DNA of 64,000 nt from Gemmatimonadales bacterium (GTDB lineage: Bacteria > Gemmatimonadota > Gemmatimonadetes > Gemmatimonadales > GWC2-71-9): positions 33,808 through 97,807 of the forward strand of contig JANRIW010000020.1 of the NCBI GenBank assembly GCA_033764505.1, read 5' to 3'. Below the pieces are notes generated by a model, which ran no database searches, was not told the DNA's origin, and saw nothing but the letters and a program-made list of their open reading frames with translations. Numbering within the stretch: position 1 is the stretch's first letter; the number at the start of each line of letters is the position of its first letter. Shown piece by piece: positions 22,775-51,062 of this stretch. A program made the translations under genes and the position numbers.

Positions 22775-22853
22775 GATGCTGGTGGGTACCCGTGGGGGCG
22801 GAGATCGATCCGGACGTCTTGTATGCGTAGGTGCATGCATCCCAGTGAGCATA

Positions 22854-30734: not shown

Positions 30735-30855
30735 GTGACCCGGAACCGGCGACCAGTAATCAGTAACAGCGATTGGAGCATGAGCCCTGGCCACGGGTCA
30801 CTGGTCACAGGTTACTCGCTCTCACGTCTCACTTCTCACGACTCTCGACGCTCGG
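30735..30855. repeat. heptamer-armed hairpin that runs into the deaminase pseudogene
   Basis: Left arm GCGACCA GTAATCA GTAACAG. Right arm TCACTGG TCACAGG TTACTCG CTCTCAC GTCTCAC TTCTCAC GACTCTC. Confidence 0.8.
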
Positions 30856-31190
30856 TGCCGTCGCAGGTGGCATCCCGATCGGTTCGGTCCTGGTGATTGA
30901 TGGCCGGATTGTGGGCCGAGGGCACAACCAGCGGGTGCAGTAAAGCCGCCGCAACGGACGAGCGACGTGAGTTTCCAAGTACCGGGTTGGTTTGCCGTTC
31001 GCTGTTCGCCTTTCGCTGTTCGCTGTTCGCTGTTCGCTGGCCGTTGCACTCGACGCTGTCGCCGTGCGACATGTGCAGTGGGGCGGCGCTGATGTACGGG
31101 ATCCCGAAGATCGTGGTGGGGGAGAACCGGACGTTTCAGGAACCCGAGGCGTACGTGCGGTCGCGTGGCGTGGAGGTCTTGGTGGTGTGA
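30851..31190 (+). pseudogene. decayed cytosine/nucleoside deaminase (yeast FCY1-type CMP/dCMP-deaminase fold)
   Basis: The N-fragment GGIPIGSVLVIDGRIVGRGHNQRVQ ends in TAA at 30941. The C-fragment, in another frame, reads TLSPCDMCSGAALMYGIPKIVVGENRTFQEPEAYVRSRGVEVLVV. There is no start codon. The HxE zinc-ligand segment is replaced by sequence containing a GCTGTTC heptamer array (30994..31042). Confidence 0.65.
30994..31042. repeat. heptamer array inside the pseudogene
   Basis: GCCGTTC, GCTGTTC, GCCTTTC, GCTGTTC x3, GCTGGCC. Confidence 0.9.
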
Positions 31191-31504
31191 CCGACGCTGA
31201 GCCACCTCATCGCGACCGCAGCCCCCTCGCATGGTGATGATTCTTCTGGTATAGCGGATCGCGGCCCAGATGGCGGGGGTGGAGCGGTTGGTGCTGCACT
31301 TGATGGATGAGGCAGGGGTGGGGACAGCGGAGTTCGCGATATCGCGGGCGTGGGAGTTGGTGGCGGAGGGTGAGGTGGGTTTGCGGTGGTGAGTGGGGAA
31401 TGGGATGTGAAGGAACGCAGGCCTCGGCGGTCGGGTTGTCCGTCAAGCGAGTTCCAGAACCGGACGCCGCGGTTGAATGTGCAGGTGGGCAACCTCGAGG
31501 AGCT

Positions 31505-32194
31505 ATGCGCGAATTCGAATGGGAGGCCGTCCAGGCCAGCATTAATCGTCAGATAGGCCGCCTTGTCCACGCACAGAGAACCCTTGCCTCCATCCATGAG
31601 TCGTTGGACAGCCGTCGACGTTCTCCCCTTGAGGAAGACTACATCGAACGCAGCCTGACGGGAGGACCAGTAGTCGGGCCTCATGTCCGAGACTTCGATG
31701 GCGTCAAAGTCACAACATGGCGGCTCCACCGCCGAGGGAAAGGAGCGAGGGATATAAGGGGTGCCGACATCCTGTATGAGATCGTAGGGAAGAAATTCGT
31801 CCTCATCCAGAACAAAATTCCAAGTAATGCCCGGGTGCTTGGGGATGCGGCGCAACTTCGTGAACTGCGAAGCTCTTGTCCGCAACCTTGCCCGCCGACG
31901 CCGAAGACGTTCGTTGGCTGTTCAAGCTGGCATTGCCTCAATGAACCGACTGGTGGAAGCCGTTATCATCAGGCTTGCCAGGCAGAGGCACTATTCGGAA
32001 AGGCAAAGTCAAGGCAGGTCCTGAGCTTTCAAGGTGGCTTGGGGGAAGCTGCATTCGAAAGCATGTTCGCCGAGTGCAGAATCGGGGCTAGTGTCGAACC
32101 CACGCCCGTGTTGTTATGGGCAGCCCAGTCAATTGCGCAGGGAAATGCCGTCTTCTTTGTGATCCAAGAGGGGGAATGGCGGCCCTTGACCTAG
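31505..32194 (+). CDS. hypothetical protein, possible PD-(D/E)xK-like nuclease
   Basis: 229 aa with GADILYEIVGKKFVLIQNK (D...QxK). An equally long antisense ORF (31136..31885) makes the strand choice uncertain. Confidence 0.4.
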   Translation: MREFEWEAVQASINRQIGRLVHAQRTLASIHESLDSRRRSPLEEDYIERSLTGGPVVGPHVRDFDGVKVTTWRLHRRGKGARDIRGADILYEIVGKKFVLIQNKIPSNARVLGDAAQLRELRSSCPQPCPPTPKTFVGCSSWHCLNEPTGGSRYHQACQAEALFGKAKSRQVLSFQGGLGEAAFESMFAECRIGASVEPTPVLLWAAQSIAQGNAVFFVIQEGEWRPLT

Positions 32195-32322
32195 CAATCG
32201 TTTGAGTTGGCGTTTGGATCTCACCCCTCGGCCGCGCGCTGTAGTCTTCCGGAGGAACGAAGGGGCCGCGGCGCGCCCCGTCACAGACACCTAGGACCTC
32301 AGGCCAACAAAGAGAAAGCCAA

Positions 32323-33168
32323 ATGAAATACTGGCTGGTGAAGGGCAGCCCCAAGAGATATGATCTCGACGAAGCGGTCCAGCTGGGATTAGTAGAGACT
32401 TGGGAGACGAGGAAACCACCCCGGGATTGGCGAGTAGGTGACCGCCTGTTCTTCTGGTCATCTGCACCGCGATTGCACCTCGTTGCCATCGGGAGCCTGT
32501 GTGGCGTTGTGGGAAAGCCGACGCGTGATGGACAGACGCTCTATTCTGTGGAATACCTCACAGATCCGCTGCCGAACCGGGTTGGCCAAGACCGGCTGCG
32601 AGCTGATCCCATCTGCGCCGGAGCAACCTTTCTGAAGCCTGCGGTTGCTCAGGGTGTGCTTGAAGTTAGCACGTCAGAAGCACATCAGATGTACCGCTTG
32701 TTGCGCGCGGCGAACCTAGGCATGGCCGATCGTTGGCCCGACATCCCCCAGGTGGACAATACGGCTAAGGTTGAAGCTCAAACACTTGCAAGTGCGCCAG
32801 TTTCAAGCACCCAGCCAGTGCCCTCCAATTGGTCTTTCGATCAGCTCGCCGATCTGGAAGCAGAGCGGACTTTCGCAGTACGTCGAGAGCAGCAGATGAT
32901 CCGGCAGCTCTTGCTCAATGGGCAGAGCACGGGCGGCTGTTGCATCTGTGGAGAATCCTTGCCGGCCGAGCTACTCATCGCGGCACACATCAAACCACGT
33001 CGACTTTGCACCGACGCAGAGAAACGCGATGCCCGTCACAACACAGCACTTATGTGCACACTCGGATGCGACGCGCTATTCGAGAGAGGCTTCATTGGTG
33101 TCAAGGAGGGCAGGGTCTGTACGGGTCCGGTTGCGTCGCCGGTAGTAGCGGTCCAACGATCGGTCTGA
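32323..33168 (+). CDS. EVE (PUA-like modified-base reader) domain fused to an HNH endonuclease
   Basis: N-terminus MKYWLVKGSPKRYDL...GDRLFFWSS is typical of EVE. C-terminus CCICGESLPAELLIAAHIKPRRL...HNTALMCTLGCDALFERGFIGV is typical of HNH_2. Confidence 0.8.
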   Translation: MKYWLVKGSPKRYDLDEAVQLGLVETWETRKPPRDWRVGDRLFFWSSAPRLHLVAIGSLCGVVGKPTRDGQTLYSVEYLTDPLPNRVGQDRLRADPICAGATFLKPAVAQGVLEVSTSEAHQMYRLLRAANLGMADRWPDIPQVDNTAKVEAQTLASAPVSSTQPVPSNWSFDQLADLEAERTFAVRREQQMIRQLLLNGQSTGGCCICGESLPAELLIAAHIKPRRLCTDAEKRDARHNTALMCTLGCDALFERGFIGVKEGRVCTGPVASPVVAVQRSV

Positions 33169-33394
33169 CGCCTGATTGGGAGAGATTGTTCGGCGTACTC
33201 GAAGGCGAGTACAAAGTATTTCCGATACCGACAGACACATTCGACAGTGTAGTAGCAAAAGTAGCGTTTGTTGCGCCCGGGATCTAACGCTTCGGCCCAT
33301 GCCTTGGTATCGGCAGGTCTTGCCGCAGAGCCGGACCACGCAGAATACTCACGCTCTCAATTCACCCATCCACTTTCACAACACTGAGGGTCCG

Positions 33395-35233
33395 ATGCAC
33401 CTGAGGTTTCCTGAACTGATGGGTGGCCCTGTTCAAGGGTTGAATGATGCGGGGGTGGAAAATTTTCAAGGGGCGATTGATGAGTACCTCTCCCGGGAGT
33501 GTGGTCAGAACACGTGCGATGCCATCAGGAAAGATGTCAACACAGCGCGGCTCGAGTTTGACCGGATGACCGTGCCAACTGAGCAGATACCAGGGTTTGC
33601 GTCCTTGCGCGTGGCGTTGGCTGCGAGCCTAGTAAAGTGGGGCGAAAAGGATAAGGAGCGCGAGTTCTTTGAAACCGCAGTACATCTCGCTTCAAGAGAT
33701 GAAGTCGACGTTTTGAAGATCAGTGACTACGGTACAACTGGACTTACGGGAGAGGATGAGGAGGAGACTGGCCGCTGGTTCGCGCTCGTCAAGTCGCAGG
33801 GTGTTTCGAACAAGGGGAGCAGCGCTGGGGGTTCGTTTGGGATCGGCAAGAGTTCGCCCTTCGCCGCCTCAAGGTTTCGGACGGTCTTCTATGGGACACG
33901 CACTACGACTGGATCTGTAGCCCTTCAGGGAGTCAGTAGGCTAGTCACGCATAGCAACGCCGATGGACAGAAGACCCAAGGTGTCGGATTCATTGGTCAC
34001 TACGAATCACAAGGCAGTGACAGCGGAGGGCCAGTCTTTCGCGCAGTTCGGGATCCGCAAGAGATTCCTCCCTTGTTCAGACGGGAATTGCCTGGTACCG
34101 ATATCTGGGTTGTTGGGTACCGGAGTGGGGTAACGTGGGACCACGACTTAGTTCGATCGCTGCTCACCAATTTCTGGCCAGCGATTCATCGCGGCTCCGT
34201 CCAATTTCGTGTTGGTGCGCTGGAGATTTCGAAGGAGAATCTCGACGAGATGATTCTCCGCTACTCTGTCGGAGAGGATTTCGTTGCACATTTGTACTTC
34301 AAGGCTATCGCAAGTCAACCAATTCGAAAGAAGCTAAGGTCCGTCGGGGATTGCGAGCTGTATCTTACTAGCGCGAGTGCGGATCTGCCCAAGAAGATTT
34401 GCATGGCTCGCAACTCTGGGATGCGGATTTATGACTACCAGCCGAGAGCATGCCGGGTGCCCTTCAGCGGATTGTTCCTCTGCAGTGACGAGGAGGGGAA
34501 CAAGTTGTTGCGCCAGCTGGAGCCGCCCAAGCACGATGGGTGGGACTACAAGCGCATGGAGGACGCCTCCGGAAAGCGGGCCCTAGACGAAATCAAGGGG
34601 TGGATCCGGGATGAAGTGAAGAAATTGAACCCGCTCTTCGGTGGTAAGAGCTTTAATGAGACCGAACTGGCGAAATACTTACCAGACATACAGCCCGATG
34701 ACCACTCAGACCTCCTAAGTGACTCAACCGGAGCTTCGATTGACGAAAGTCTCGAGCCGAGGCCGACTCTCGACAGTGTTTTGGCGGTCGCGGTCAGGGC
34801 AAAGTCGATTTTCAAGGACTCTGGGGGAACTGCTGATGGCGGATATGGGAAGCAGGAGAGCACGGGAGGCGGAGACCACAACAGTGGAAATAGCGGCAAG
34901 AAGCCTAGGAGTGGAGGCGGAGGTGCGGACGATTCATCTCCACCCTCAGTCAAGGTGCGTAGCTATCGCTCTGCCGCCGATCGGTACGAAATGGTGATTC
35001 GCAGCGCCGTGGCCTATTCCGGCAGGTTGATTGTTCACGCGGTGGGCGAAGACGGCGCACTTGAAGGAGTTGAGCTTAAGTCGGCGTCGAGGGGCACGTC
35101 TGATGGCGAGGGTCTCACAGTTGGTGGAGGTACCATCAACGGCATCCGACTCGAGGCTAACATACCACTCCGCCTCTCGGTCGTTATCGGGGCGCTTGAG
35201 CGGCGATCACTAACCGCGGTGGTGCTTTCATGA
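33395..35233 (+). CDS. GHKL-superfamily (MORC/sacsin/Hsp90-like) ATPase, first gene of a three-gene operon
   Basis: ATG after GAGGG. N-box RECGQNTCDA, G1 ISDYGTTGLTG, G2 AGGSFGIGKSSPF, then a Gly/Ser-rich linker and a beta-rich tail of about 90 aa. 612 aa. Confidence 0.8.
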   Translation: MHLRFPELMGGPVQGLNDAGVENFQGAIDEYLSRECGQNTCDAIRKDVNTARLEFDRMTVPTEQIPGFASLRVALAASLVKWGEKDKEREFFETAVHLASRDEVDVLKISDYGTTGLTGEDEEETGRWFALVKSQGVSNKGSSAGGSFGIGKSSPFAASRFRTVFYGTRTTTGSVALQGVSRLVTHSNADGQKTQGVGFIGHYESQGSDSGGPVFRAVRDPQEIPPLFRRELPGTDIWVVGYRSGVTWDHDLVRSLLTNFWPAIHRGSVQFRVGALEISKENLDEMILRYSVGEDFVAHLYFKAIASQPIRKKLRSVGDCELYLTSASADLPKKICMARNSGMRIYDYQPRACRVPFSGLFLCSDEEGNKLLRQLEPPKHDGWDYKRMEDASGKRALDEIKGWIRDEVKKLNPLFGGKSFNETELAKYLPDIQPDDHSDLLSDSTGASIDESLEPRPTLDSVLAVAVRAKSIFKDSGGTADGGYGKQESTGGGDHNSGNSGKKPRSGGGGADDSSPPSVKVRSYRSAADRYEMVIRSAVAYSGRLIVHAVGEDGALEGVELKSASRGTSDGEGLTVGGGTINGIRLEANIPLRLSVVIGALERRSLTAVVLS

Positions 35234-36096
35234 TCATTCGCGATCGGTCCTTTCCGCATCCCGTGCTTGCACCATTTCTGGACGACGTGTCACCGAATGA
35301 GTTCGAATGCAGAGTCTTGGTTAGCGCGGACGCTGACCAATACTACCTTAGCGTCGCATTCAGCTATACAAATGAGAGTCTACAGACACTGGTAACGGCG
35401 GGGCTCGCTGTTCACTCGATTCATGTCGAGTGTAAGCGTAATTATTTTCGGCACTTGTACACGCTAAGCGACCGCGCCGGGGTATTGAGCATCAGGACCA
35501 GCGAAATCATTGGTCGCGTGGAGATTTCCGGTTTCATCAGTGCAGCAGTGCCTATACCTGACTACTCGATTGCCGGCGCCCATTCAGACTATGGCGATAC
35601 CGCATTCAACATCGAAATTGGGGACATTCTGGCTGCTGCCTCGACTGTGACGTTCGATGCATATACGGACTACGACCCCCTCTCGACAATCGCCTCGATT
35701 CTCATGGTACGCTGTTCGGAAGCGGAGGTGGATGGCCCCTTGAAACTCGATACCAGCGGGGATCTGCTAAACGTGACCCTGTCACAGTCTGACTACGCGC
35801 GCTACGTGGAGTTGAAAGGAGATCCGAGCCTTGGGGCATTGCTCGCTAACCAGATTGTAGTACCGGTCTTGGTGGAGGCGGTACACGAGATCAAGGCAAC
35901 GCCAGCGGAAGAGATCGAACTCGAAATGCAAAAGCGCTGGTACCGTTCGATCGTGCGGAAGTTTGAGGTGTTGGATCTTGATGTGATGGGGGGCGATACA
36001 CCTGCAGTTGAGCTGACACAGATTCTGCTTCAGCTACCCCTACGCCGCTCGCTTGAGGGATTGATCCAGATCACCGAGATGGATGGTGATGTATGA
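35230..36096 (+). CDS. hypothetical protein (operon gene 2), possible PD-(D/E)xK core
   Basis: ATGA overlap with gene 1. 288 aa. VLVSADADQYYLSVAF ... HSIHVECKRNYF could be a D...ExK motif. No other motif recognised. Confidence 0.7.
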   Translation: MIIRDRSFPHPVLAPFLDDVSPNEFECRVLVSADADQYYLSVAFSYTNESLQTLVTAGLAVHSIHVECKRNYFRHLYTLSDRAGVLSIRTSEIIGRVEISGFISAAVPIPDYSIAGAHSDYGDTAFNIEIGDILAAASTVTFDAYTDYDPLSTIASILMVRCSEAEVDGPLKLDTSGDLLNVTLSQSDYARYVELKGDPSLGALLANQIVVPVLVEAVHEIKATPAEEIELEMQKRWYRSIVRKFEVLDLDVMGGDTPAVELTQILLQLPLRRSLEGLIQITEMDGDV

Positions 36097-36827
36097 GGCT
36101 TCCCTTTTTCCGTGCAGAGTTCCTCACTCGTCTCAAAGCGAATGCGGACGAGAACGCTTCGAAGTATGGACTGGACACGGGATGGATCGAGGCTCTTGCG
36201 AAGACTCAGTCCTATTTTCGCGAAAGCAATCAAATCGTTGATCCACCACCCGAGTTGATTTTTGCTGGGGAAGACAATCCTCAACATGACGCTGAGAATG
36301 CGAAGAGAATCTATTTGTGGCTTGCGGATCTGACCCCGGCCGTTGCGATGGAAGAGCGCCTTTGGGCATTTCTCACGCATTGCACCTTCCCGGCCTACAT
36401 GCGGGCTCGTTGGCCTGTATCCGGACCAGGGACTTTGCTAAGGCGATATTTTCTTGAAGGACAGTCGTTCGCCGCCCTTTCACGGAACGGCATCGGACGG
36501 TTGTGGTGGGCGGGCTACTTGACGAGGGACGAACGGCGCATCAACCCATTCGAGCTGACAGAGACGCTATTCCTGAGACAAGATGTGCAAGTTGCTCTGC
36601 TTGAGCGGTCATTGGGAAAGTGCGCGACAGCAAGGACAGCAGTTCTCGACTATGTCAGAACGAATCAAGAGTGGCTAGGGGAGTATTCCTTCGGGCGTCG
36701 AGTGCAGGTCTTGGTCAAGGAGCTGAATCTCTTGGGAGGAGTAGCCGTCCTCGATGCTTTGCCTCCGGCTTCGATCACTGCATACCTTCATAAGGTGAGC
36801 AAAGAGCTTCGCGAGAACAATGACTAA
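36093..36827 (+). CDS. hypothetical protein (operon gene 3)
   Basis: ATGA overlap with gene 2. 244 aa, helical-looking (ERLWAFLTHCTFPAYMRARW, GRLWWAGYLT). No domain recognised. Confidence 0.7.
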   Translation: MRLPFFRAEFLTRLKANADENASKYGLDTGWIEALAKTQSYFRESNQIVDPPPELIFAGEDNPQHDAENAKRIYLWLADLTPAVAMEERLWAFLTHCTFPAYMRARWPVSGPGTLLRRYFLEGQSFAALSRNGIGRLWWAGYLTRDERRINPFELTETLFLRQDVQVALLERSLGKCATARTAVLDYVRTNQEWLGEYSFGRRVQVLVKELNLLGGVAVLDALPPASITAYLHKVSKELRENND

Positions 36828-36838
36828 CTTCTGCCTTC

Positions 36839-38080
36839 TTAACCATGGATTGCGCATGCCCCACGCACATCAGCGACGAAGTCCTCAAACGAAAGCAGGT
36901 GCGCTTGGATCTCGTCGGGGTAGCTCCTGATGAGGGACGCTGGTACGACGAGCTGCACTCCGTGCTGTTGCATCTCACGGTGCTGGGAAACCGAAACGCC
37001 CTCCTGCAGCGTCAGCAGGTGCTTCACCGTGATCCGATCAGCTTCGTTGATGACCTGGCGCCACCGATCCTTGCAGGTTGTCTTCGCGGCAAGCATACGG
37101 AGCCTCGTCGCCGGCCACGCCTGATTGTGGTACGCTTCGATTGACGGGAAGATGAAGTCCGGAGTCTTCTTGTCTTCGGTTTGCGGTGTCCAGCTGAAGG
37201 CGACAGTTTCCTCCTGAAAAATCTGGCGGGCCTGCAGTTCGAGTGACCGACCACTCCGGGATTTTCTCCGATTGGTCAACGAGCCGGCGAACGCCACGAA
37301 TGCGTCAACCGATGCGAATCCCGCGGCAATCCGGGGCATTGCATGGAAGCGCTCGATCGATCGGAACACGTCGTACTCGCAATCACGACGTGCCATCAGC
37401 CGATCATCGACCGGCTTCCGGTGGTGTGTACGGTTTGCCACCACCCACTGCACGATCTCGTCGCCCGAGGGGAACGCTTCGCGCCAGGTCGCAGGAATGT
37501 TGGCGTCCTCGAGTGCGCACGGTCCGTCCTGCTCTTCGCCGATTCCGAGGCCCGACGGGCTGACAAGCAGGGGCCTGCCGGGCTCGACGCCCTCAACCCG
37601 CTCGAGGAGGTAGTCTTCCTCTGCAGCACTCCGGCAGCGCCAGACCCGGAGCGCATCCGCATCCTTGCCTGTTTGTACCCGAAACGCCATCACCACCAGT
37701 GAGCCGGTTGCGTCGGGTTCCACCATCGCGGCATCCCGACCACCCCATTTGGTGAGGCGCGCTTCATCGCGCCCGTTGCGCTGCCGCTTCACGCGCTTCG
37801 AGTTGTACCAGATGAGGCGGAGGTCCATCGATTCCACGTGTGAGTCGACCACCGCCGGCAAGACGAGATCGGGGTTTTCCTGGGTATCAGCGCGCGCTGA
37901 GAGTCCAGGAAAGGCGGCCGCGAGCAGCGCTTTCCCCACATGCGGACCACCTTGGTGGACATTGGGCTTGGCGTAGGTGTCGTTCGCGGAGAGGTACTTC
38001 ACATGCCAGAGCCACTCAGGACCTGAAACGTCGATCAGCCAGTTCTCAAACTCGCGTACCGGAAGCGGTAGGTCACTCAC
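36839..38080 (-). CDS. type IIE restriction endonuclease, EcoRII family
   Basis: Close by-eye match to E. coli EcoRII: YLSANDT (N-terminal effector domain), NRRKSRSGRSLELQ, TPDFIFPS, RMLAAKTTCKDRWRQVINEADRI, LFTLQEGVS-like LLTLQEGVSVSQ. GTG start overlaps the vsr stop (GTGA) and is preceded by GGAG. Confidence 0.9.
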   Translation of the reverse strand: MSDLPLPVREFENWLIDVSGPEWLWHVKYLSANDTYAKPNVHQGGPHVGKALLAAAFPGLSARADTQENPDLVLPAVVDSHVESMDLRLIWYNSKRVKRQRNGRDEARLTKWGGRDAAMVEPDATGSLVVMAFRVQTGKDADALRVWRCRSAAEEDYLLERVEGVEPGRPLLVSPSGLGIGEEQDGPCALEDANIPATWREAFPSGDEIVQWVVANRTHHRKPVDDRLMARRDCEYDVFRSIERFHAMPRIAAGFASVDAFVAFAGSLTNRRKSRSGRSLELQARQIFQEETVAFSWTPQTEDKKTPDFIFPSIEAYHNQAWPATRLRMLAAKTTCKDRWRQVINEADRITVKHLLTLQEGVSVSQHREMQQHGVQLVVPASLIRSYPDEIQAHLLSFEDFVADVRGACAIHG

Positions 38081-38481
38081 CGTTGGATTCTCCTGACAAG
38101 CGCATCGAGTGAACGTTCCCCGGTTCGGCATTCCCAGACCACGATCACCCGCCACCCGAGCCGCCGAAGCGCGGCGATGTTACTCGCGTCTCGCGCAACG
38201 TTTGCGCGGAACTTCGACACCCAGAACTCGCGGTTGGTCTTCGGCGTCGCAGCATATCGGCATCCGTGGTGTCGGTGCCAGAAGCAGCCATGCACCAGAA
38301 TCACCACACCCCAGCGCGGCAGGACGATGTCCGGACGCCCGGGAAGATCAACGGGGTGCAGCCGGAACCGGAATCCGGCACGATGCAGATGGGAGCGGAC
38401 GATTCGTTCAGGGTTTGTGTTCTTGCCGCGGATTCCGGCCATCATCCGGCTTCGCGTCGCGCGGTCGACGATGTCCGTCAC
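38077..38481 (-). CDS. vsr: very-short-patch repair endonuclease
   Basis: 134 aa with RSRMMAGIRGKNTNPE, LPGRPDIVLP and LVHGCFWHRH motifs. Confidence 0.9.
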   Translation of the reverse strand: MTDIVDRATRSRMMAGIRGKNTNPERIVRSHLHRAGFRFRLHPVDLPGRPDIVLPRWGVVILVHGCFWHRHHGCRYAATPKTNREFWVSKFRANVARDASNIAALRRLGWRVIVVWECRTGERSLDALVRRIQR

Positions 38482-38484
38482 CGT

Positions 38485-39756
38485 CTACGCTGCCTCTGAG
38501 GGGAGCTCCTGCTGAAAGCCGGCGCCACGACGTTCGCCTCTCACGTACGGTACCAGCGCCTTGGCCACTGCCGCGACCACAGGTACGGCAACCGAATTGC
38601 CGAACTGCTTGTATGCCTGTGTGTCCGAGACGTGAATCCGGAATGGCTCACGTCCCGGTCGATCGAAGCCCATCAACCGGGCGCACTCACGCGGCGTCAA
38701 CCGCCTCGGCCTGTCTCCGTCCCGGCGGATCAGGATCTCCGAACCGTCCTTGAAGTAGCGTGCCGAGAGTGTGCGTGCGACGTCATCGGGACCGACCAGC
38801 CCGAAGCCGAATCCGTTCCCAGCCGCCTTGTGCTTCTTGGCATACCCTTGGAGGTACTCCCAGAGGCCGGGAGTCAGGGTATAGCGTGGAAGCACTGCGC
38901 CAGCCGGATCAAGGAAGCGATCATCGACCGTCTCCGATCCGTCCTCGGGGTGGAGGATGTCCTTGAGCTTCGGCCCCTTCTCTACGGGAGGGAGATCGAC
39001 CTCATCCCAATCGAAGCGCGCACCTAGATCGGGGTGCAATCCGACGATGAAGATCCGCTCGCGATGCTGCGGCACGAAGCGCTTGGCATCGATGATCTTC
39101 CATGCGATCTCGTAGCCGAGCTTCTCGGCCAGGGTTCGGCGGATGACCTCGAATGTCCTGCCCTTGTCGTGCGACGCCAGATTCTTGACGTTCTCGAGCA
39201 CGAAGGCCTTCGGCTGCTTCGCCGCGATGATCCGTTCGATGTCAAAGAAGAGGGTGCCCTGGGTCTCGCAGTCGAAGCCGTGCTTCCTGCCGAGCGCGTT
39301 CTTCTTGGAGACTCCGGCGATGGAGAACGGCTGGCAGGGAAATCCGGCCAACAGGATGTCGTGATCGGGGATGTCCGCTTCCGGGATCACGGTGATATCC
39401 CCGTGCACTTCATGGTCCCCAAAGTTCGCTCGGTACGTCTTCTGGGCGTACTTGTCCCACTCTGACGTGAAGACACACCTCCCCCCAGCCTCCTGGAACG
39501 CGAGGCGGAAACCCCCGATCCCGGCGAAAAGGTCGATGAAGGAGAACTGACCCTTCGCCGGCGCTTCCGGAATGAGGCCGAGTAGATACTGAAACACGGC
39601 CTCGCGAATCTGCCCTTCGCCGGCTTCCCAGCGAGCAATGGTCCTAGGCTTCCACCCGCACGCCTCTGCCAGCTGCTCTTGGGTCATTCCCAGTGAATCA
39701 CGGAGCCGGCGGAGGTCGCTGCCGGAGCGATTGTCGGGTTTTGTTTGGGGGGACAT
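38485..39756 (-). CDS. dcm: DNA (cytosine-5) methyltransferase, Dcm/M.EcoRII family, with N-terminal XRE-type HTH
   Basis: [10 protein letters not shown] (motif I), GFPCQPFS (IV), ENVKNL (VI), [10 protein letters not shown] (VIII), [10 protein letters not shown] (X), with long colinear similarity to E. coli Dcm. [30 protein letters not shown] at 39792 is an alternative start. Confidence 0.9.
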
Positions 39757-39788
39757 AAGGATGACATTACGACATGTTGGCGGGACTT

Positions 39789-40862
39789 TCAAGCCCCCCT
39801 GTCTCGCCCTCTTCGGGCGATTGTCTCAGTGCGGGACCCGATGCCGATTGGCAAGGATCGGAGGGCGAGCGCATGGCGCCTGATGAACTCCGGTGGGAGT
39901 GCATTTCCGATCATGAGCGCGACCTTGTACCGCCCATGTTCGAGAGGGAATCGATAGTCTCTGGGGAACGATTGCAGAAGTGCAGCCTCCCTGAGACTGA
40001 TCGCCCGATCCTGGGTTGGGTGGAGGAATCTCCCCTTTGAGGGGTTGATGCAACCGCCTGTGATTGTGGGAGCGGGCTTATCCCAAGCCATCCGCCCGTA
40101 GACGTCCTTATAGCCATCACTCCGCTGGTGACATGGCAGCTGGGACTCGATTGGGAGTGCCGACCTACTCCCCCCGTTGGCGGGGATCATCGAGATTACA
40201 CGATTGATCCGATCAGAATGTTTGCTACCATGGTGATGGAGCGGGTCAGCGCTTCGCACTGGTGCAGGCAGACGCCCGATTGCTGCACGGACTGTCTTCC
40301 GCTTACGGGAGCGCGCGGCAAATTCAGGAGTACCACTCTTCGATGCCAGCAAGATGAGCCTTCGTCGATTCTGTGCGACACCGTAGTCTGCCACATTCAA
40401 CACATCATATCGCAGCCGGTACCCGCAGGCCCGCAAGCCGGCGCAGAATTTCCGAAAATTGTGCGTACGCGCCAGCGCCGGAACGTTCTCGATCATCACA
40501 CTGCGCGGCTGCATCGACCTGACGAGTCTGAGGACGTCAAGGATGAGGCCCTTATCCGCATCCCTCGGTCGCCGCCTTCCATTCCTAGTTCTCATGGTGG
40601 AGTAGCTTTGGCACGGGGGGCAGGCCGCCAACAAGTCCAGGTTCCCAGGTGAAATGCGTGAATCCCGAAGCAGCGCGGGACCGCTGACCTTCTTCACGTC
40701 GCATTCCCACAACTTGACCTTCGGGTTGTTCATCTTGTACGTAATGCAGGCGACCGGGTCGAGTTCGACAGCGCCGATTACTGCATAGCCAGCTGCGAGC
40801 AGGCCTGTGGTGAGGCCACCTGCTCCCGCGAAGAGGTCAACAGCAGTGTGCGTTCGGTTCAT
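39789..40862 (-). CDS. second DNA (cytosine-5) methyltransferase
   Basis: VDLFAGAGG (motif I), CPPCQSYS (IV), ENVPAL (VI), [10 protein letters not shown] (VIII), GNALPPEF (X). Confidence 0.9.
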
Positions 40863-40915
40863 TGGGCTCGACGTGATATGGATTCCGGTGCGTGCTTCTC
40901 GCTTCTGGCCCTACG

Positions 40916-42862
40916 TCACACTGAGAATGCAAAGGCATACCCACCGTCAGGAAATCGGATCTGAGGCCACCAAGCTACGTGCTGAGTTCCTTGTTGCTTG
41001 ATACGGAGCAGGAACAACGTCACGCGAGTGGAAGGAACCCGATTGCTCTCTCCGCCCTCGAGAATTCCTCGAGTCTCGCGGCGGGCTTCCTTCAACCCTC
41101 GGTCGCGGTCGACATACACGAATCCGGTGTCGTGTTTCAGGTGCTTCGCCAATTGCGCAACGGATTCTGCCACAGCAACCGCGTCCCAAATTCGTTCGGA
41201 CTCCTTAGGGTCAGGATGCGTCAGACGGATCAGATCTTGGATCACTTTTATCGGCAGCTCCTGATACGTCTTGTCCTGAATCCCCGCCACAATCTTGTCG
41301 AGCTTTTCCGTCGAGGTCGCTATAGAGCTGTCACGGAGAACCTGGGCGGGGTTGTAACTTCCACCCCCCGAGTAGATACCTACTGCGCCTGGAGCTAGCA
41401 CGTTCTTCCGTGTAGGGCTGAGACTTCCTTCAACATACACCCCTCGGAATGCTTCATCTGGATGCCGAGAGATCAGGTCGCGAAGCCCATTCTCCATTTT
41501 GTTGATAGCCTTGAAGACGACATCCAGTTCAGCTGGGAGAAAGAGCCGGAGCAGTCCCATATCTTGGCGGCGGTATCCATACATGCGGGCATGTTGGAGA
41601 ACTGTGTCAGCCTGCGGTTGCTTCGGGTTTCGTCCGTAGTAGCTAACAAGCAGATTCTTGATCGTTACCCCGCGGCCCAACTTGTTACCACCGACAAAGA
41701 GGTTATAGGGCGCCTGAACGGCTACATCCTCATCGGTCTCTCCGTTAACCAGTTTCACCGCAATCCCGGGTGCGAAAAAGGCGATGTCCTTGATCAGATC
41801 ATCAAATGAGGACTGCTTGATGCCGTTGTGCGTCACGGCAAGGTCTTCGTAGGCTCCCCGCAACCTAGCAATCACACTTGCGTCACTCGCGGCCAATTTG
41901 TCAGCCAAGTCCGCCTTGTACTTTCGGAAAAGGTCGACAATGTACTTATGATCCGCGGTTTTCGTGCTTACGTGGCACAAGAAGGCACAGTTTTGGTCAA
42001 CACTGATTTTGCGCTTATAGGTGGCCGCAACCATGAATGTGTCTAAGGCCCGCAGCAGAGATTGCGGGATCGTAAGTGTCGGTGCAGGTTGAGCGCCAAC
42101 TGCTAAGGCAGCGATATCTTGGATGTTGAAGTGTGTTACGAGAGTTGATCTCTCTCCGAAAAAGTCGTCCCCGCCAACGTAGTCACTACCCGGATGGCTC
42201 AGGACAGTGAACTGGGGCCGAAAATCGTGCTTCGGAGTCTGTAGGAACAGCGCTTGCGGCGTGGCTGTGACTTGCAGGTAGGTCGACTTGTCGAAGAACT
42301 TACGGATCTCAGAAATAAGTTCATTGATCTTGCTGCGAGTTCCGTTCGCCTTCTTGGCGGCAGTATTGAGGCTCGCCTGATCCGCTTCGTCATCGATGAT
42401 CAAGCAGCTTAGGCCTTTGACATTTCCGACCTTGAAGTTGTCTATCAGCGTGCTCAGGATCTTGGCGTTCTTCGTCGTGACGATGACACAGGTTCCCCTC
42501 CGAATGCGGCTGAGAAAGTCCTTCCCGTCTTTGAAATCATGTTTGCCCAGAATGTCCATCCCTGGAAACGCTTCGCGGGCGCGTCCAAAGGTTTGAGCAT
42601 AGAGCGGATCATTGTCCGAAGTAAGAATGATGATCGTCCGATATCCCTCGTCGGCACCGATGGCGCCCGTAACGGTCAGCACTCCGGTCTTGCCGCTTTG
42701 CACGAGTCCGTAGATCAATCCGTTCGTCGATTCTTTGCCGCCGCTCGCCGGGTCTACCCACTTCGTTGCCACTTCTACCGCGGTCTTCTCAATGTCGGAC
42801 ACTTCGGCCTGATTGCCGATCTGCTTCGTGAGTAGCCGCAGTACTTGGGACCGGTGTTTCAT
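40916..42862 (-). CDS. Z1-domain P-loop NTPase
   Basis: 648 aa. Walker A GLVQSGKTG and Walker B LIIDDEADQASLN in the arrangement typical of Z1-domain proteins found next to 5mC methyltransferases. Confidence 0.75.
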   Translation of the reverse strand: MKHRSQVLRLLTKQIGNQAEVSDIEKTAVEVATKWVDPASGGKESTNGLIYGLVQSGKTGVLTVTGAIGADEGYRTIIILTSDNDPLYAQTFGRAREAFPGMDILGKHDFKDGKDFLSRIRRGTCVIVTTKNAKILSTLIDNFKVGNVKGLSCLIIDDEADQASLNTAAKKANGTRSKINELISEIRKFFDKSTYLQVTATPQALFLQTPKHDFRPQFTVLSHPGSDYVGGDDFFGERSTLVTHFNIQDIAALAVGAQPAPTLTIPQSLLRALDTFMVAATYKRKISVDQNCAFLCHVSTKTADHKYIVDLFRKYKADLADKLAASDASVIARLRGAYEDLAVTHNGIKQSSFDDLIKDIAFFAPGIAVKLVNGETDEDVAVQAPYNLFVGGNKLGRGVTIKNLLVSYYGRNPKQPQADTVLQHARMYGYRRQDMGLLRLFLPAELDVVFKAINKMENGLRDLISRHPDEAFRGVYVEGSLSPTRKNVLAPGAVGIYSGGGSYNPAQVLRDSSIATSTEKLDKIVAGIQDKTYQELPIKVIQDLIRLTHPDPKESERIWDAVAVAESVAQLAKHLKHDTGFVYVDRDRGLKEARRETRGILEGGESNRVPSTRVTLFLLRIKQQGTQHVAWWPQIRFPDGGYAFAFSV

Positions 42863-42869
42863 GCGCTCC

Positions 42870-43292
42870 TCAACTGATTAGTAGTCGGGACCATGCTGAT
42901 GGGGGGATCTTGTGAGGAAGTGTGCATGCAGGTCCCGAGAGCTGATAGTGCTGTCCGTGAGACCTCCAACAGGATACGTGGCTCGTCTTGGCGCCAGGCG
43001 TTAGCACCGAGAAGAGCTCTTCAGAGCAAACCGATGCGATTCCATCCGCTCCGCATATCAGCCCGATTGTGACAGGTCCGGCGGCCGCCTTGGCGGCCAA
43101 GGCCGAAATTTCCGAGTCCACGAATGAAAAAGCCCACGGGCTCCTCACCTTGGTGGAGTATTTCAGGTACAAGACATGCCGGCCGTTGACCACCACGAAT
43201 GGTGGGGCAAACTGAATACGAACCGGGTCAGCCTCGCGAAGGAGCCTGTAAAGTGCGGCGCCTTCGTAGAAATCTTGCTTTGAAATCGCCAT
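42870..43292 (-). CDS. hypothetical protein, first gene of the Z1/Dcm cluster
   Basis: 140 aa from MAISKQDFYEGAALYRLL. No domain recognised. 7-nt gap to the Z1 gene. Confidence 0.5.
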   Translation of the reverse strand: MAISKQDFYEGAALYRLLREADPVRIQFAPPFVVVNGRHVLYLKYSTKVRSPWAFSFVDSEISALAAKAAAGPVTIGLICGADGIASVCSEELFSVLTPGAKTSHVSCWRSHGQHYQLSGPACTLPHKIPPSAWSRLLIS

Positions 43293-43894
43293 ACCGGTGA
43301 TGTACCTCGGGCGAGGTTGGTGATCCGCGACCGCCACAGCGGGAGGACTTACAGTAAAGGTACTATTCGGCGAACAATTCTGAGGCGCCACTTGTTGAGC
43401 CTAGGACGGGGGATCTTTTCCGAAGCGGCCCTTTGAAGGCGTGAAGTTGCGAAGTCGCAGTCCAATACAGGCCTGCTGCACTTGAGACTCCGCTAGATCT
43501 GCGCCATTCGCTTCCAAGGGCAGCCGGCGTGCACCTCGCGTTTCTGATGCGCGCGCGCCGGCGGTTGGCTGGAGCATTTCCACTATGAGATAGTTTATGC
43601 GCAAAGCATTGTGGGTTCCAATGGTTCGAGGCTGCGTCTCACGATGCTTTGCTCCCATTCTTTGTTGTGACATTGCCGACAAGCCTCCCCCGAACCGCGC
43701 CACCCACCCCCCTCAACCACCCCACAACGCCCTCCCCCAATGTCCAACTCTCGCCCGCCCCCGCGCAGCGGCTCGCCACCGACCCGCACCATCGCCGCAG
43801 AGCATCCACCATCTGCCCCACACCCGCCTACCGTCACACCCCCACCCTACCTTTCCTCCATGCCCTGCGACCTCACGCCACCCCATGGAGCCCA

Positions 43895-44794
43895 ATGACC
43901 CACCCCGCCATCACCCTCCTCCCGCAACAGCACGGCAGCGACCTCCCCCACATCGCGCTGCGCGCACTCCGGCACCACCTCCCCACCATCGCCTGTGATT
44001 GCTACGTCGAGGCCATCGAACACCACGGCTCCCCCGTGGAGTGGGGATGGCGCTACGGCCCCCACGAGAACATCGATCATCACGCCCCCGTCGATGCCAT
44101 GGCTCGGCTCGTCTCCAGCGCCAACCTCGCCCTCGTCCGCGTGGCCCGCCTCGGCACTGCTTCGCCCGATACCCGCGTGCTCCTCACCCACACCGACTGC
44201 GACTCCATCCTCTCGGCGGGGATCGTATCCGGGCGCATCCCGCCGCTGCTCCACTACGGCGACGCTGCCCTCGCGGCCGACCATACCGGCGCGGACCACC
44301 CCGTGGCCGACCTCCTCCAGGCCATCCAGGATCGTCGCGACGTGGAGTATGCCTTCGAGATGCTGGCATGCCTCGAGGGCGGCCGCCCACTCCCGCCCGA
44401 TGCCGCGCGGCTCCTCGATGCCCGGCGCCGGAAGCGCGATGACGCCGCCAGCGCCGTGGCCCAGGGGCGGTTCGAACAGCTCGGCGAGGGGATCTGGTTT
44501 GCAGGGTTCAGCGGGGAGACCGACGGCGAGTTCTTTCCGGCGCTCCTCCCCGAGGCGCAGCTGATCGTGGTGGGGGTGCGGCATCCCGATCCGGCACGCG
44601 CCAACCCGTGGGCCATCAAGGTGCGTCGCGGCCTGGGCATGCCGGACGGACGGGACCTGCGCCATCTTGAGCTGACGCGGTACGACCAGGCCTACGGTGG
44701 CCGGTGGAATGCCGGGTCGAACAAGCGGGGCGGGGGGACAGGCTTGGAGCCGAGGGTGTGGGCGGAGGGGTTGCGCCGGCGGGTGTCATCCTGA
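43895..44794 (+). CDS. hypothetical protein with DHH-like motifs in unusual order
   Basis: NIDHH, THTDCDSILSAG and YGGRWNAGSNKRGGG motifs. The stop codon lies in a GTCATCCTGA repeat head. Confidence 0.5.
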   Translation: MTHPAITLLPQQHGSDLPHIALRALRHHLPTIACDCYVEAIEHHGSPVEWGWRYGPHENIDHHAPVDAMARLVSSANLALVRVARLGTASPDTRVLLTHTDCDSILSAGIVSGRIPPLLHYGDAALAADHTGADHPVADLLQAIQDRRDVEYAFEMLACLEGGRPLPPDAARLLDARRRKRDDAASAVAQGRFEQLGEGIWFAGFSGETDGEFFPALLPEAQLIVVGVRHPDPARANPWAIKVRRGLGMPDGRDLRHLELTRYDQAYGGRWNAGSNKRGGGTGLEPRVWAEGLRRRVSS

Positions 44795-45056
44795 GCGGAG
44801 CGAAGGACCTGCGTGATCGTGAACGGGCTGGGGTTCTGTGCATTCGGAATCACGCAGGTCCCTCGCTTCGCTCGGGATGACAGATTTTCGGGTAGGTCCT
44901 TCGACTTCGTCCGCTTCGCGGACTCCGCTCAGGATGACAACGCTTCGCGGGCTTCGCTCAGGATGACCATCCCCCCGTGCCCAACATCCCTCACCTATCA
45001 TCCATCATCAATCATTTATTATCAATCATCCATCATCCATCATCCATCACGATCTC
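44785..45056. repeat. cluster of full and partial GTCATCCTGAGCG elements followed by an AT-richer heptamer array
   Basis: Elements at 44785..44881, 44894..44938 and 44939..44967. CCTATCA, TCCATCA, TCAATCA, TTTATTA, TCAATCA, TCCATCA x3, CGATCTC (44994..45056). Confidence 0.85.
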
Positions 45057-45134
45057 CGCGCATTGACCCTTCGCTTCGCTCAGGGCAGGCATGCGCGGCT
45101 GTAACGCCCGACATCCCAATTCTTGGAGATCCGC

Positions 45135-45668
45135 ATGGCCCCACTCCTCCTCAAGGCCCTCCACTTCGCCGCGACCAAGCACCGTTTCCAGCGGCGCAAG
45201 GACGTGGAGGCCTCGCCGTATATCAACCATCCCATTGCCGCGGCCGAACTGCTCACCCGCATCGGCGGCGTCACCGACACCACGGTCCTCGTTGCAGCGA
45301 TTCTCCACGACACTGTCGAGGACACCGAGACCACCCTTGAGGAGCTGGAGGCGGAGTTCGGGAAGGAGGTCAGCGGGATCGTGGCCGAGGTGACCGACGA
45401 CAAGTCGCTGGCGAAGGCGGTGCGCAAGGAGCGGCAGGTCGAGCATGCGCCGCACGCATCCACCGCGGCCAAGCTCATCAAGCTGGTGGACAAGATCTGC
45501 AACGTGACCGACGTGATCGAGCATCCGGCCGCCGGGTGGTCGGCCGAACGTCGGCTCGAGTACCTCGCCTGGGCGGAGCGGGTGGTGGCCGGCTGTCGGG
45601 GGAGCAATGCGGCACTGGAGGGGCACTTCGATGCGGTGGTGGCGAGGGGGCGGGCGGAGATTGGGTGA
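45135..45668 (+). CDS. HD-domain (p)ppGpp hydrolase-like protein (SpoT/Mesh1-type small alarmone hydrolase)
   Basis: ATG after [17 protein letters not shown] and [13 protein letters not shown] motif. Confidence 0.8.
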
Positions 45669-45832: not shown

Positions 45833-45991
45833 ATGAGCGAGAAGAAGAAGGACATCGTGCAGATCAAGAACCCTCGCACCGGCCACTACGTGAAGATCGA
45901 CCGCGACGCAGGCCGCATTCTCGATCACAAGAAGTCGGAAGGGCCGTACAAGGGTGTTCCGGTGGCCCGCCCTGGGTCCAAGAAGAAGTGA
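45833..45991 (+). CDS. small basic protein (52 aa)
   Basis: ATG after GAGGG. MSEKKKDIVQIKNPRTGHYVKIDRDAGRILDHKK. ATGA overlap with the next gene. Confidence 0.45.
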   Translation: MSEKKKDIVQIKNPRTGHYVKIDRDAGRILDHKKSEGPYKGVPVARPGSKKK

Positions 45992-46629
45992 TCTACTACT
46001 CGCCGGTCAACGGCGACGTCTTGCAGGAGCCGGTGCTGTGGCGCCCGAAGACTGCCTTCATAATGCAGCAGCTCGGCGACCCGGTCCCAGATGCTGTCCT
46101 GGACGCGCGGCGCGCCATTGATCAGGTGCTCAAGCGTACGGGTTGGTCCGCCATCGACGCGAGCGATGAGGTGACCGGGCAGGATTACCTCGCCAAGATC
46201 TGGAAGCTGATCCTTACTTGCCCCGTTGGAATTGCTCTCGTACACGAGGGAATTGGCCCAAGTACGCTGGCGAACATCTTCTATGAACTCGGGATGTTGC
46301 AGGCGTATGGCAGGGAGACAGTGGTCATTCGGATTGGGAAGGCTTCCATACCATCTGATTTCATCCGGAGTGAATGGATCCCGACAGGTCCCAGCTTCAA
46401 GCAGCAACTCGGCAAGTACATCAAGGGCCTCGCCGTTCGCGAGACATACTATCGCCAGATGGCGGAGCTCGTCGAGCGCAACCCATTGCTGGCCATCGAC
46501 TACCTGCGCCGTGCGACGCTTCTCTCCGGTGACGCCGGTCTACGACTGCGGGCACGCCGCATCCTGGATGAATCGGGCATTGGCGAGCGATCGAAGGCCA
46601 GTGTCGAACAACTTATGCTGGAGTTCTGA
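45988..46629 (+). CDS. nucleoside 2-deoxyribosyltransferase-like / TIR-like Rossmannoid domain protein
   Basis: KTAFIMQQL, GIALVHE and NIFYELGMLQAYGRETVVI (conserved YE-G-A motif position), followed by a C-terminal helical region. Confidence 0.55.
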   Translation: MIYYSPVNGDVLQEPVLWRPKTAFIMQQLGDPVPDAVLDARRAIDQVLKRTGWSAIDASDEVTGQDYLAKIWKLILTCPVGIALVHEGIGPSTLANIFYELGMLQAYGRETVVIRIGKASIPSDFIRSEWIPTGPSFKQQLGKYIKGLAVRETYYRQMAELVERNPLLAIDYLRRATLLSGDAGLRLRARRILDESGIGERSKASVEQLMLEF

Positions 46630-48549: not shown

Positions 48550-48942
48550 TTACCGCCCCTTGTGCGCCCGAAACTCGACCTTCGGCAGCGTCTTGAAATC
48601 TTCATCCTGTGTCCAGAGCGTCCCGCCCACCGCCTGCGTCGTCGCGTAGACAATGCTGTCGGCCAGGGCGAGCCCTTGTCGCCTGCCGAGCGTCGCGGCG
48701 TCGACCGCGAGCTGATCGTCGAGGGGCACGACCGTGGCCTGGCGCATCTGCGCGAGCACGTCAGGGATGATGGCACGTCGCCCCTGCGCGTCGAGCCGGC
48801 GCACGACCTCCGAGATCACAATCGTCGGCACGACCAAGGTGCGCACCGTCTCAATGGCGGCGGCGAATTCACCCGCATTGGGGCCGTCGGCGAGATACTC
48901 GAGCCAGGCGGATGAATCGACCACGTTAGACACGGTCGGCAT
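48550..48942 (-). CDS. vapC: PIN-domain toxin
   Basis: VVDSSAWLEY..., LALADSIVYATT, LWTQDEDF acidic PIN residues. A GTG at 48924 is an alternative start. Confidence 0.8.
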   Translation of the reverse strand: MPTVSNVVDSSAWLEYLADGPNAGEFAAAIETVRTLVVPTIVISEVVRRLDAQGRRAIIPDVLAQMRQATVVPLDDQLAVDAATLGRRQGLALADSIVYATTQAVGGTLWTQDEDFKTLPKVEFRAHKGR

Positions 48943-50800: not shown

Positions 50801-51062
50801 CCCTTCGCTACGCTCGCTCAGACATCCGGTCCTCCTCTGACGGCCCCCCCGATCCTCGCTGGAGCGGCCGCGTTGCAGGCCCTCACCCACTATTTTGCAG
50901 TCGCGCCACTTCCGTCCCGGTGGCCAGCATGTCGAGTGCGGCGAGAGCTCCGGCTCCCTGACCCGCCACCACCCGTGCCTCATCGGTGGTCCTGCCGGCC
51001 GACCCTCCCAGGGTCGGAACCATGCGCGAATGGGACGGCACGGTTCATCGCACAGGTGCCTC

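Follow-up and report, generated by a model that had tools for sequence, protein, structure and literature searches.

A low-G+C defence island without recombinase genes in a Gemmatimonadales genome, probably a variable hotspot assembled cassette by cassette

How does a dense block of defence genes come to stand in a bacterial chromosome when neither a recombinase gene nor a tRNA gene marks its arrival? The question is raised by a 64,000-nt stretch of the metagenome-assembled genome of an uncultured Gemmatimonadales bacterium (GCA_033764505.1, contig JANRIW010000020.1, positions 33,808 to 97,807; hereafter "the window"), in which positions 31238-43816 form an island of ~12.5 kb with a G+C content of 57.7%, compared with 67.9% for the remainder of the window. 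The island sits between a PKD-protein gene, a lipoprotein gene and a deaminase pseudogene on its left and R298, the gene of a predicted phosphodiesterase, on its right. An earlier note on this sequence took the block for a recent horizontal acquisition and considered its insertion mechanism unexplained. Herein we argue that it is probably a defence island at a variable chromosomal hotspot, an island that grew by stepwise accretion and replacement of cassettes and not by one integrase-mediated insertion. A horizontal origin for most of the block is upheld by its composition and by the unrelated cargo that relatives carry, whereas a single event is not, and the mechanism has an ordinary candidate in the recombinase-free defence hotspots described elsewhere (PMC10250203, PMC10121019).

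Composition and content of the island

The drop in G+C that the earlier note had judged by eye was confirmed, and sliding G+C, tetranucleotide and codon-usage analyses all set the island apart from its flanks. The 1-kb windows inside the island (n = 12) average 0.576 ± 0.031 with a maximum of 0.631, and those outside (n = 51) average 0.679 ± 0.020 with a minimum of 0.628, so that the two distributions barely overlap (Mann-Whitney p = 1e-7). Tetranucleotide usage, taken as a composition-normalised distance from the flanks, gives 0.25-0.32 for the island and 0.15-0.22 outside it, while the G+C content at third codon positions (GC3) is 0.55-0.76 for island genes and 0.86-0.90 for host genes; the change is abrupt at both borders. 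Twelve densely packed open reading frames (ORFs) leave ~0.9 kb of the island non-coding, with four gaps of 100 bp or more, and every one of them is defence-type or unknown, as the earlier note had it, although its count of eleven rises by one because of a vsr gene at 38077-38481. The ORFs can be grouped as four or five units, listed here with the features at the two borders:

30773..31237, + strand: cytosine/dCMP-type deaminase pseudogene (sub-threshold dCMP_cyt_deam_1 match; alignment with the relative L017)
31238..31504, unstranded: left junction spacer, G-rich, GC skew up to +0.37, host-like G+C of ~0.65
31505..32194, + strand: orf1, predicted 229-aa PD-(D/E)xK nuclease of a small uncharacterised family (HMMER family, AlphaFold2 model, Foldseek)
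32323..33168, + strand: EVE-HNH fusion, 281 aa (Pfam EVE and HNH_2; PADLOC HNH models)
33395-35233 (A), 35230-36096 (B) and 36093-36827 (C), + strand: PDC-M33 A/B/C candidate defence system (PADLOC; Pfam DUF6339)
36839..39756, - strand: EcoRII-type restriction-modification (RM) module, with the restriction endonuclease at 36839-38080 (ORF to 38155), Vsr at 38077-38481 and Dcm1, fused to a helix-turn-helix (HTH) domain, at 38485-39756
39789..43673, - strand: second C5-cytosine methylation (m5C) module, with Dcm2 at 39789-40862, a superfamily 2 (SF2)/Z1 ATPase at 40916-42862, the 173-aa ORF o173 at 42870-43391 and a 90-aa ORF at 43401-43673
43674..43830, unstranded: right junction spacer, C-rich, GC skew down to -0.47
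43898-44794, + strand: R298, predicted DHH/DHHA1-fold phosphodiesterase (AlphaFold2, Foldseek); taken as right anchor over 43831..44794

Within the island GC3 forms three plateaus, at 0.58-0.62 from orf1 to PDC-M33C, 0.71-0.76 over EcoRII, Vsr and Dcm1, and 0.55-0.66 over Dcm2, the Z1 protein, o173 and the 90-aa ORF.

Variable cargo beside the anchors and a shared module

Relatives were recovered on the right through R298 (amino-acid identity 88% at locus L011, 63% at L012, 62% at L013/L014, 58% at L015/L016 and 58% at L027) and on the left through the PKD protein (94% at L018/L023, with 92% at the nucleotide level, 84% at L017 and 79% at L024). At least seven different cargo sets lie beside these anchors, mostly RM, Dnd-like, GmrSD/NsnA, AIPR/MZB, AbiE and toxin-antitoxin genes. 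Upstream of the R298 homologues there are DndB, a 699-aa protein, NsnA/GmrSD_N, GIY-YIG and DUF6508 (L011), a type III Res with toxin-antitoxin pairs (L012), a DndB module with WYL regulators (L013/L014), MZB, AIPR, Dcm and Vsr (L015/L016), and toxin-antitoxin modules (L027), with ParE/PhD among the toxin-antitoxin cargo. The nucleotide homology of these relatives to the window begins at 43816-43910 (43816 for L012, 43910 for L011), and the right spacer is not conserved in them. On the left side, genes for proteins of 506 and 317 aa and an AbiEii-like gene replace the lipoprotein, the deaminase and the island at L018/L023; L017 keeps the lipoprotein and the deaminase, followed by unrelated ORFs of ~60% G+C; and L024 has ParE/RH3 and DUF2442 beside its PKD homologue. 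The cargo of L011 and L012 also lies below host G+C, and integrase and transposase Pfam families are absent from all of these relatives' loci (~8 variant islands). Since relatives that keep either flank carry other defence or toxin-antitoxin cassettes and no recombinases, we regard the site as a variable defence hotspot.

One part of the island probably has a longer local history. Window positions 36942-39775, covering the EcoRII-type module, are 87% identical at the nucleotide level to L020/L021/L022, from a congeneric groundwater genome; the flanking host genes of the two genomes are 72-84% identical, and the module has 62% G+C in both. These three loci belong to 1.1-Mb, 433-kb and 55-kb contigs of that genome, which carry cluster mates of Dcm1 at 90% identity or more. 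In the groundwater genome the EcoRII side is followed by Z1 (967 aa)-DUF4420-HATPase_c_3, HNH, REase-ARP and an SLFN-like helicase, and the Dcm side by small toxin-antitoxin-like genes, then by a gene with 72% aa identity to window 51063-51581 and, at some distance, by that of a 126-aa glyoxalase. The window shares this last order, with a 232/177-aa gene (50895-51593) and then a 126-aa glyoxalase (51823-52203), the glyoxalase being matched by Pfam label and length only. The ~9.5 kb outside the module have no counterpart in any relative recovered, and these lower-G+C cassettes are unique to this genome. Because the RM module is syntenic in both genomes and the cassettes next to it differ, the island reads as a mosaic of an older, anchored RM module and younger cassettes beside it, and we infer that the EcoRII system would be the oldest resident, the lower-G+C side cassettes having been added or swapped later. 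The earlier note's single recent acquisition is hence not supported, given three compositional modules of which the EcoRII module is shared at 87%; the presence of the same block at the same locus in all relatives, which that note had named as evidence against its reading, is seen in part, in the congener and for 2.9 of the 12.5 kb, the EcoRII module, and the rest is absent from the relatives recovered.

The left border does abut a decayed cytosine deaminase gene, as the earlier note had recognised. The dCMP_cyt_deam_1 match (E 4e-4) covers profile positions 76-101 only, and the recognisable fragments are N-terminal (30848-30943) and C-terminal with the PCxxC motif (31040-31190). Host heptamer arrays at 30787-30844 and 30990-31039 break the gene, at stretches that in L017 still code, over a similar length, for the N-terminus and the HxE catalytic centre, as if the period-7 arrays were replacing decaying coding DNA. 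At L017 (84% aa) the same gene stands in the same place and is already broken by an in-frame stop, which means that the decay predates the island or is independent of it; decay as a consequence of the insertion is not supported. Homology to L017 stops at ~31186-31197, and the left spacer, absent from L017, holds degenerate GGTGAGG/GGTGGGG motifs.

Mobility signals and rival explanations

Profile, tRNA and repeat searches agree with the earlier note, which had seen no integrase, transposase, tRNA junction or obvious direct repeats. No integrase or transposase was detected among the 12 ORFs (Pfam, NCBIfam, PHROG, PADLOC) or within 10 kb on either side, and the small non-coding fraction leaves no room for a hidden mobility gene. 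No tRNA gene lies at the island, the only one of the window being tRNA-Phe at 10098. Searching the borders for short direct repeats, as the earlier note had advised, yielded a 12-mer, TGCTGCACTTGA, and no significant terminal direct or inverted repeat (Smith-Waterman against block-shuffled nulls; repeat search): the gapped alignment of the borders scores 24 against a null of 20.5 ± 2.6 with a maximum of 31, and the G-rich left and C-rich right spacers are not alignable as inverted repeats (score 29, null 28.7). A promoter/terminator scan was uninformative.

The earlier note had also drawn on host repeats, which it described as filling nearly every other intergenic region and as entirely absent from the island. 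The 13-mer GTCATCCTGAGCG has 26 copies in the window, all of them intergenic and none between 26609 and 44784, and the intergenic period-7 tandem arrays of the host, which have many different units (4251-4397, 22842-23083, 30773-31237 and many others), are missing between 31040 and 44980. Absence thus holds for these two families and fails for CCGCGGCC, which is present twice inside, at 32264 and 41670; nor do host repeats fill nearly every gap, as they occur in 20 of 44 host intergenic gaps (~45%). Their absence from the island is at best mildly informative (p about 0.01-0.05, a rough estimate), and since so little of the island is non-coding and only four of its gaps reach 100 bp, the argument is weak and the absence mostly a by-product of dense operon packing. 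The 13-mer itself is the core of a REP/MITE-like (repetitive extragenic palindrome/miniature inverted-repeat transposable element) palindromic element, whose 34-nt arms at 44784-44882 are 91% complementary around a 31-nt loop; the element (for example window 44784-44967) is common to the Gemmatimonadales loci L011, L012, L017 and L020.

The exact 12-bp repeat TGCTGCACTTGA is the point at which a rival to stepwise growth takes hold. Its two copies, at 31292 and 43474, lie one near each border and are the only ones in the window, even with one mismatch allowed, and a match of at least 12 nt has P = 0.015 under a local composition-matched null. It might be what remains of attL/attR or of a target-site duplication, had the block arrived by site-specific insertion as one integrative element, be it an island, a satellite or a degraded prophage, whose integrase was lost later. 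We consider this unlikely, since the repeat was found post hoc, 7.7% of random window pairs also reach 12 nt, and the gapped-alignment null is not exceeded. Its positions moreover clash with composition, in that the host-like, G-rich 31304-31420 would fall inside the element and 43486-43680, with 58% G+C, outside, and it is absent from all of the relatives' loci; as an insertion remnant it was therefore followed up and judged insufficient. The three compositional modules, one of them separately common to a relative, and the lack of a recombinase in any of the ~8 variant islands at these anchors likewise speak against a single element. The opposite reading, of an old defence locus inherited vertically in the genus, its atypical composition kept by selection or mutation bias and nothing in it recently acquired, would suit the EcoRII-Vsr-Dcm1 genes, with their shared sequence, syntenic neighbourhood and equal G+C in the congener. 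It accounts poorly for the other ~9.5 kb, which lack a counterpart even in relatives whose flanking genes are 88-94% identical (aa) and which carry unrelated genes there, and for GC3 values of 0.55-0.66, far from equilibrium with a host at 0.87; for the island as a whole we think it quite improbable.

A metagenomic source and abrupt composition changes at both borders could also mean that the low-G+C block is an assembly or binning chimera with another organism's DNA. However, two Logan single-run assemblies, L025 and L026 (DRR729083 and DRR729084), are 100% identical to the window over 13,965 and 4,625 bp (window 30916-44880 and 40259-44883), covering the island and both junctions; since these independent assemblies run identically through the junctions, the island with its borders is not an assembly chimera. 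The junctions are also free of repeats able to mislead an assembler, and the 87% homologue of one module lies inside the 1.1-Mb and 433-kb contigs of a related Gemmatimonadales genome with the same host repeat family, which leaves a chimera exceedingly improbable. As for the annotation of the source, the NCBI proteins of the island are MDX2261281-6, and the R298 protein is SFU84_06275 (100% identity). The NCBI record seemingly lacks proteins for Dcm2, o173 and the 90-aa ORF, as MDX2261285 (Dcm1) directly precedes MDX2261286 (Z1) and the locus tags leave no gap ahead of SFU84_06275; the Logan gene calls have all three.

Besides the 12-bp repeat, several observations weigh against a stepwise-built hotspot between two anchors. 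Each flank is conserved separately and no relative contig holds both, so the single hotspot bounded by both anchors could in fact be two adjacent variable regions. Alignment to relatives, in which the earlier note had hoped to find the empty site, gave different cargo beside the flanks and no empty site among the relatives recovered; scanning GTDB genomes with the MutS-like flank gene for such a site returned only relatives at 60% aa or less, without synteny, and was of no help in locating one. The left flank itself varies, as L018/L023 are without the lipoprotein and deaminase genes and an additional 5 kb is present in L017. In the groundwater relative, the stretch from the RM module to the 177-aa gene is missing R298 and its neighbours up to the MutS-like gene, so that the wider 25-kb region is rearranged. 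The recombination route bears no sequence signature of its own and is one that we infer, and the function of every system is read from homology.

If the island did grow stepwise, the DNA would most likely have entered by transformation, transduction or conjugation, and could have been fixed by homologous recombination, either in the conserved flanks or in defence genes common to both partners, or alternatively by illegitimate end-joining beside RM genes, as in the "genomic sink" idea.

Predicted defence systems, neighbouring genes and known hotspots

The cytosine-methylating systems take up the right-hand part of the island. The EcoRII-type module matches the EcoRII-Dcm-Vsr type IIE RM arrangement, with a full-length endonuclease (EcoRII-N, E 4e-27; EcoRII-C, E 5e-66), a Dcm-family m5C methyltransferase (DNA_methylase, E 1e-84) and Vsr (TIGR00632, 139 bits against a cut-off of 98) in one co-directional cluster. 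It differs in the N-terminal HTH_3 domain of Dcm1, and CCWGG specificity is here assumed. Vsr would repair the T:G mismatches that arise by deamination of 5-methylcytosine (5mC). CCWGG is not avoided in the host flanks (170 sites observed, 175 expected), and CCWGG depletion as a clock for the residence of the EcoRII system was dropped because the flanks are undepleted.

The adjoining second module combines Dcm2 (DNA_methylase, E 1e-54; FAGAGG, PPCQ and ENV motifs intact) with a 648-aa Z1 protein (Pfam Z1, E 7e-34; PADLOC Helicase_II, E 2.8e-94 over residues 10-638 of 648) that has no match in a sequence search against the PDB. CglI/NgoAVII is an ATP-dependent RM system of M, R and N proteins (PMC4267653), and Dcm2 and Z1 resemble its M and N components, an m5C methyltransferase adjoining an SF2 ATPase of ~630-650 aa with a Z1 domain. 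The R protein of CglI/NgoAVII has phospholipase D (PLD) nuclease and B3 DNA-binding domains, whereas the window has two small ORFs instead, of 140-173 and 90 aa, and profile and PDB sequence searches detected no nuclease partner with PLD or B3 domains. The o173 product is probably 140 aa long (start at 43292), and neither small ORF has a Pfam, PADLOC or PDB sequence match, the sole match being that of o173 residues 34-166 to phrog_28860 (function unknown).

At the opposite end, orf1 has no match in Pfam, NCBIfam, PADLOC or PHROGs, and a word-indexed homologue search returned nothing. Exhaustive HMMER searching of 1.8 billion proteins found 58 family representatives, all of ~225-240 aa, and because members align from residue 1 the start is placed at 31505. 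D88, E92, K97, Q102, K104 and five Cys are invariant, and the AlphaFold2 model (predicted local distance difference test, pLDDT, 91.5) starts with a long helix, continues into a nuclease core like that of Hjc and ends in a Cys-rich part, with archaeal Hjc resolvases as best Foldseek matches (probability 1.0, target TM-score 0.6). From this model orf1 is predicted to be a PD-(D/E)xK nuclease of an undescribed family.

The EVE-HNH gene that follows encodes both domains in one polypeptide, each above its Pfam gathering cut-off (EVE, residues 2-122, 25.5 bits, cut-off 23; HNH_2, residues 206-260, 25.8 bits, cut-off 21), and its predicted architecture is that of a type IV (modification-dependent) restriction endonuclease. 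VcaM4I is a modification-dependent endonuclease of EVE-HNH architecture, and the likeness to it, an N-terminal EVE (PUA-superfamily) sensor and a C-terminal HNH nuclease, is at the level of domains only (PMC7897488). The gene here differs in being preceded by that of a PD-(D/E)xK protein and in its co-residence with two m5C methyltransferases. An architecture of nucleases that depend on 5mC or 5-hydroxymethylcytosine thus occurs alongside two apparently intact m5C methyltransferases and Vsr. Since these methyltransferases are co-resident, a broad 5mC specificity would not be possible without self-damage, and the EVE-HNH enzyme would be self-toxic unless its specificity spares the host's methylated motifs.

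The PDC-M33 genes are co-directional in the canonical A-B-C order, with PADLOC E-values of 1e-130 (A), 2.5e-59 (B) and 3.9e-53 (C) and a DUF6339 match of C at E 2.6e-42; the start of A at 33395 is that of the Logan gene call, the ORF opening at 33176, and A has no match in a sequence search against the PDB. PDC-M33 belongs to a set of 145 as yet untested candidates obtained by "guilt-by-embedding" (bioRxiv 10.1101/2024.01.29.577857). Homologues of A (~30% identity) occur on 26 plasmids, and the triad is present in each of the nine distinct plasmid contexts inspected. The triad has a dcm gene no more than 6 kb away in seven of the nine (Arthrobacter, Paenarthrobacter, Deinococcus, Priestia, Planococcus, Halobaculum and Halomicrobium), which span Actinomycetota, Deinococcota, Bacillota and Halobacteria; in the remaining two, a Ligilactobacillus triad stands inside a type I RM system and a Lactococcus triad near an AlwI endonuclease. 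The Paenarthrobacter plasmid pCZY has exactly the layout of the window (A, B and C, then the endonuclease and dcm genes in the opposite orientation); the RM system there is of the EcoRII family, and its Dcm shares 61% identity with Dcm1. On the plasmids a gene of ~75 aa precedes A in seven of the nine contexts (homology, tested in six, holds in five), whereas the window has no homologue of it, and PDC-M33 here stands beside the RM system rather than inside it.

Judged by raw counts over nine contexts, the pairing of PDC-M33 with m5C RM systems looks non-random, and because it recurs on unrelated plasmids PDC-M33 may be tied functionally to the adjacent cytosine-methylating system. It could then be a back-up effector upon inhibition of the m5C RM system, or a reader of methylation state. 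Two linked readings go further, namely that PDC-M33 is a dedicated companion of m5C RM systems and not free-standing, and that Gemmatimonadales swap whole defence cassettes at a fixed site without a recombinase; we offer the two jointly as a tentative proposal whose truth is rather doubtful. Under the latter, the anchored, vertically inherited EcoRII system would be the nucleation point, with cassettes swapped on both sides of it.

On the right, the AlphaFold2 model of R298 (pLDDT 95.3) finds pApA/pGpG phosphodiesterases, NrnA and PAP phosphatase by Foldseek, its GC3 of 0.87 is that of the host, and a 49% homologue lies among histidine-biosynthesis genes. The model and context indicate that R298 is a housekeeping-type DHH phosphodiesterase and a core anchor, and the idea of a hidden recombinase or defence gene was rejected on the grounds of its fold, host composition and the housekeeping context of the distant homologue. 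A promoter-like motif, GTCACACCCC...CTAC.TT, lies ahead of it at ~43832-43856 and is common to L012, L013 and L015. The family has no Pfam model and more than 460 homologues, with invariant DHH, HxDxD and GGRWNAGS motifs. R298 adjoins an HD_4 small-alarmone-hydrolase-like gene (window 45123-45668) and is fused to such a protein in P0053, and L013 has a second R298 paralogue 10 kb downstream. A three-gene module recurs near R298 in three relatives (L011 3631-7647, L013 538-4641 and L014 290-4312), often with DUF6508 beside R298. It encodes a DndB-like protein and two others, one of ~700 aa with a sigma-70 region-4-like HTH and one of ~180 aa, and it is not in PADLOC. The 506-aa protein of L023 (1946-3466), which has a weak sigma-70 region-4 match only, may be related to this module.

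Further right, the flank genes have no PADLOC matches as defence systems. The gene at window 45988-46629, which encodes 213 aa and has a faint TIR-like match, is lower in G+C (59%) and is followed by that of a 568-aa protein (46745-48451) with a MutS domain V ATPase only. Downstream of its R298 homologue, L027 (11779-16239) has an SIR2_2 protein and two ORFs that match these genes in length (213 and 568 aa). The 213-aa and 568-aa genes are possibly another uncharacterised defence pair. Window 48550-48942 is a PIN-domain (VapC-like) toxin gene. The region from 29.5 to 51 kb is rearranged relative to the groundwater relative, and L017 has a fragment homologous to 50391-50601 in the interval that separates its PKD and lipoprotein genes.

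Few strains of Gemmatimonadota are in culture, and descriptions of their defence biology are scarce. The locus overturns no current view and sets out no new principle; it is probably a defence hotspot of a familiar kind in a little-studied phylum, and its interest lies in the phylum, a clean mosaic and testable leads. It would carry the pattern of recombinase-free core defence hotspots from well-sampled Proteobacteria to Gemmatimonadota, and it gives an example of an island dissected into an older anchored RM module and younger cassettes. The leads are the undescribed PD-(D/E)xK family by the EVE-HNH gene, a Z1-ATPase RM variant without a known nuclease partner, and the recurrent pairing of PDC-M33 with m5C RM systems, a pointer for probing an uncharacterised candidate system.

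The closest known counterparts are cDHS1 and cDHS2 of P. aeruginosa, in which 29% and 47% of the occupied sites are free of any detectable mobility gene, and hotspot #37 of E. coli, in which the same holds for mobile genetic elements at 68% of occupied sites; for such hotspots, transduction followed by recombination in the flanks has been proposed as the route (PMC10250203, PMC10121019). Unlike cDHS1 and cDHS2, which have a tRNA or tmRNA at a flank, the island here has none, and the comparison comes from a handful of relatives in a Gemmatimonadota group known from metagenomes, with ~8 variants that are all without transposase or integrase. In other respects the likeness is close: as at cDHS1, cDHS2 and hotspot #37, core genes stand beside relative-specific defence cargo in which RM systems are dominant and many genes are unknown, and G+C lies below that of the surrounding genome both at cDHS1 (58.9 versus 65.3%) and here (57.7 versus 67.9%).

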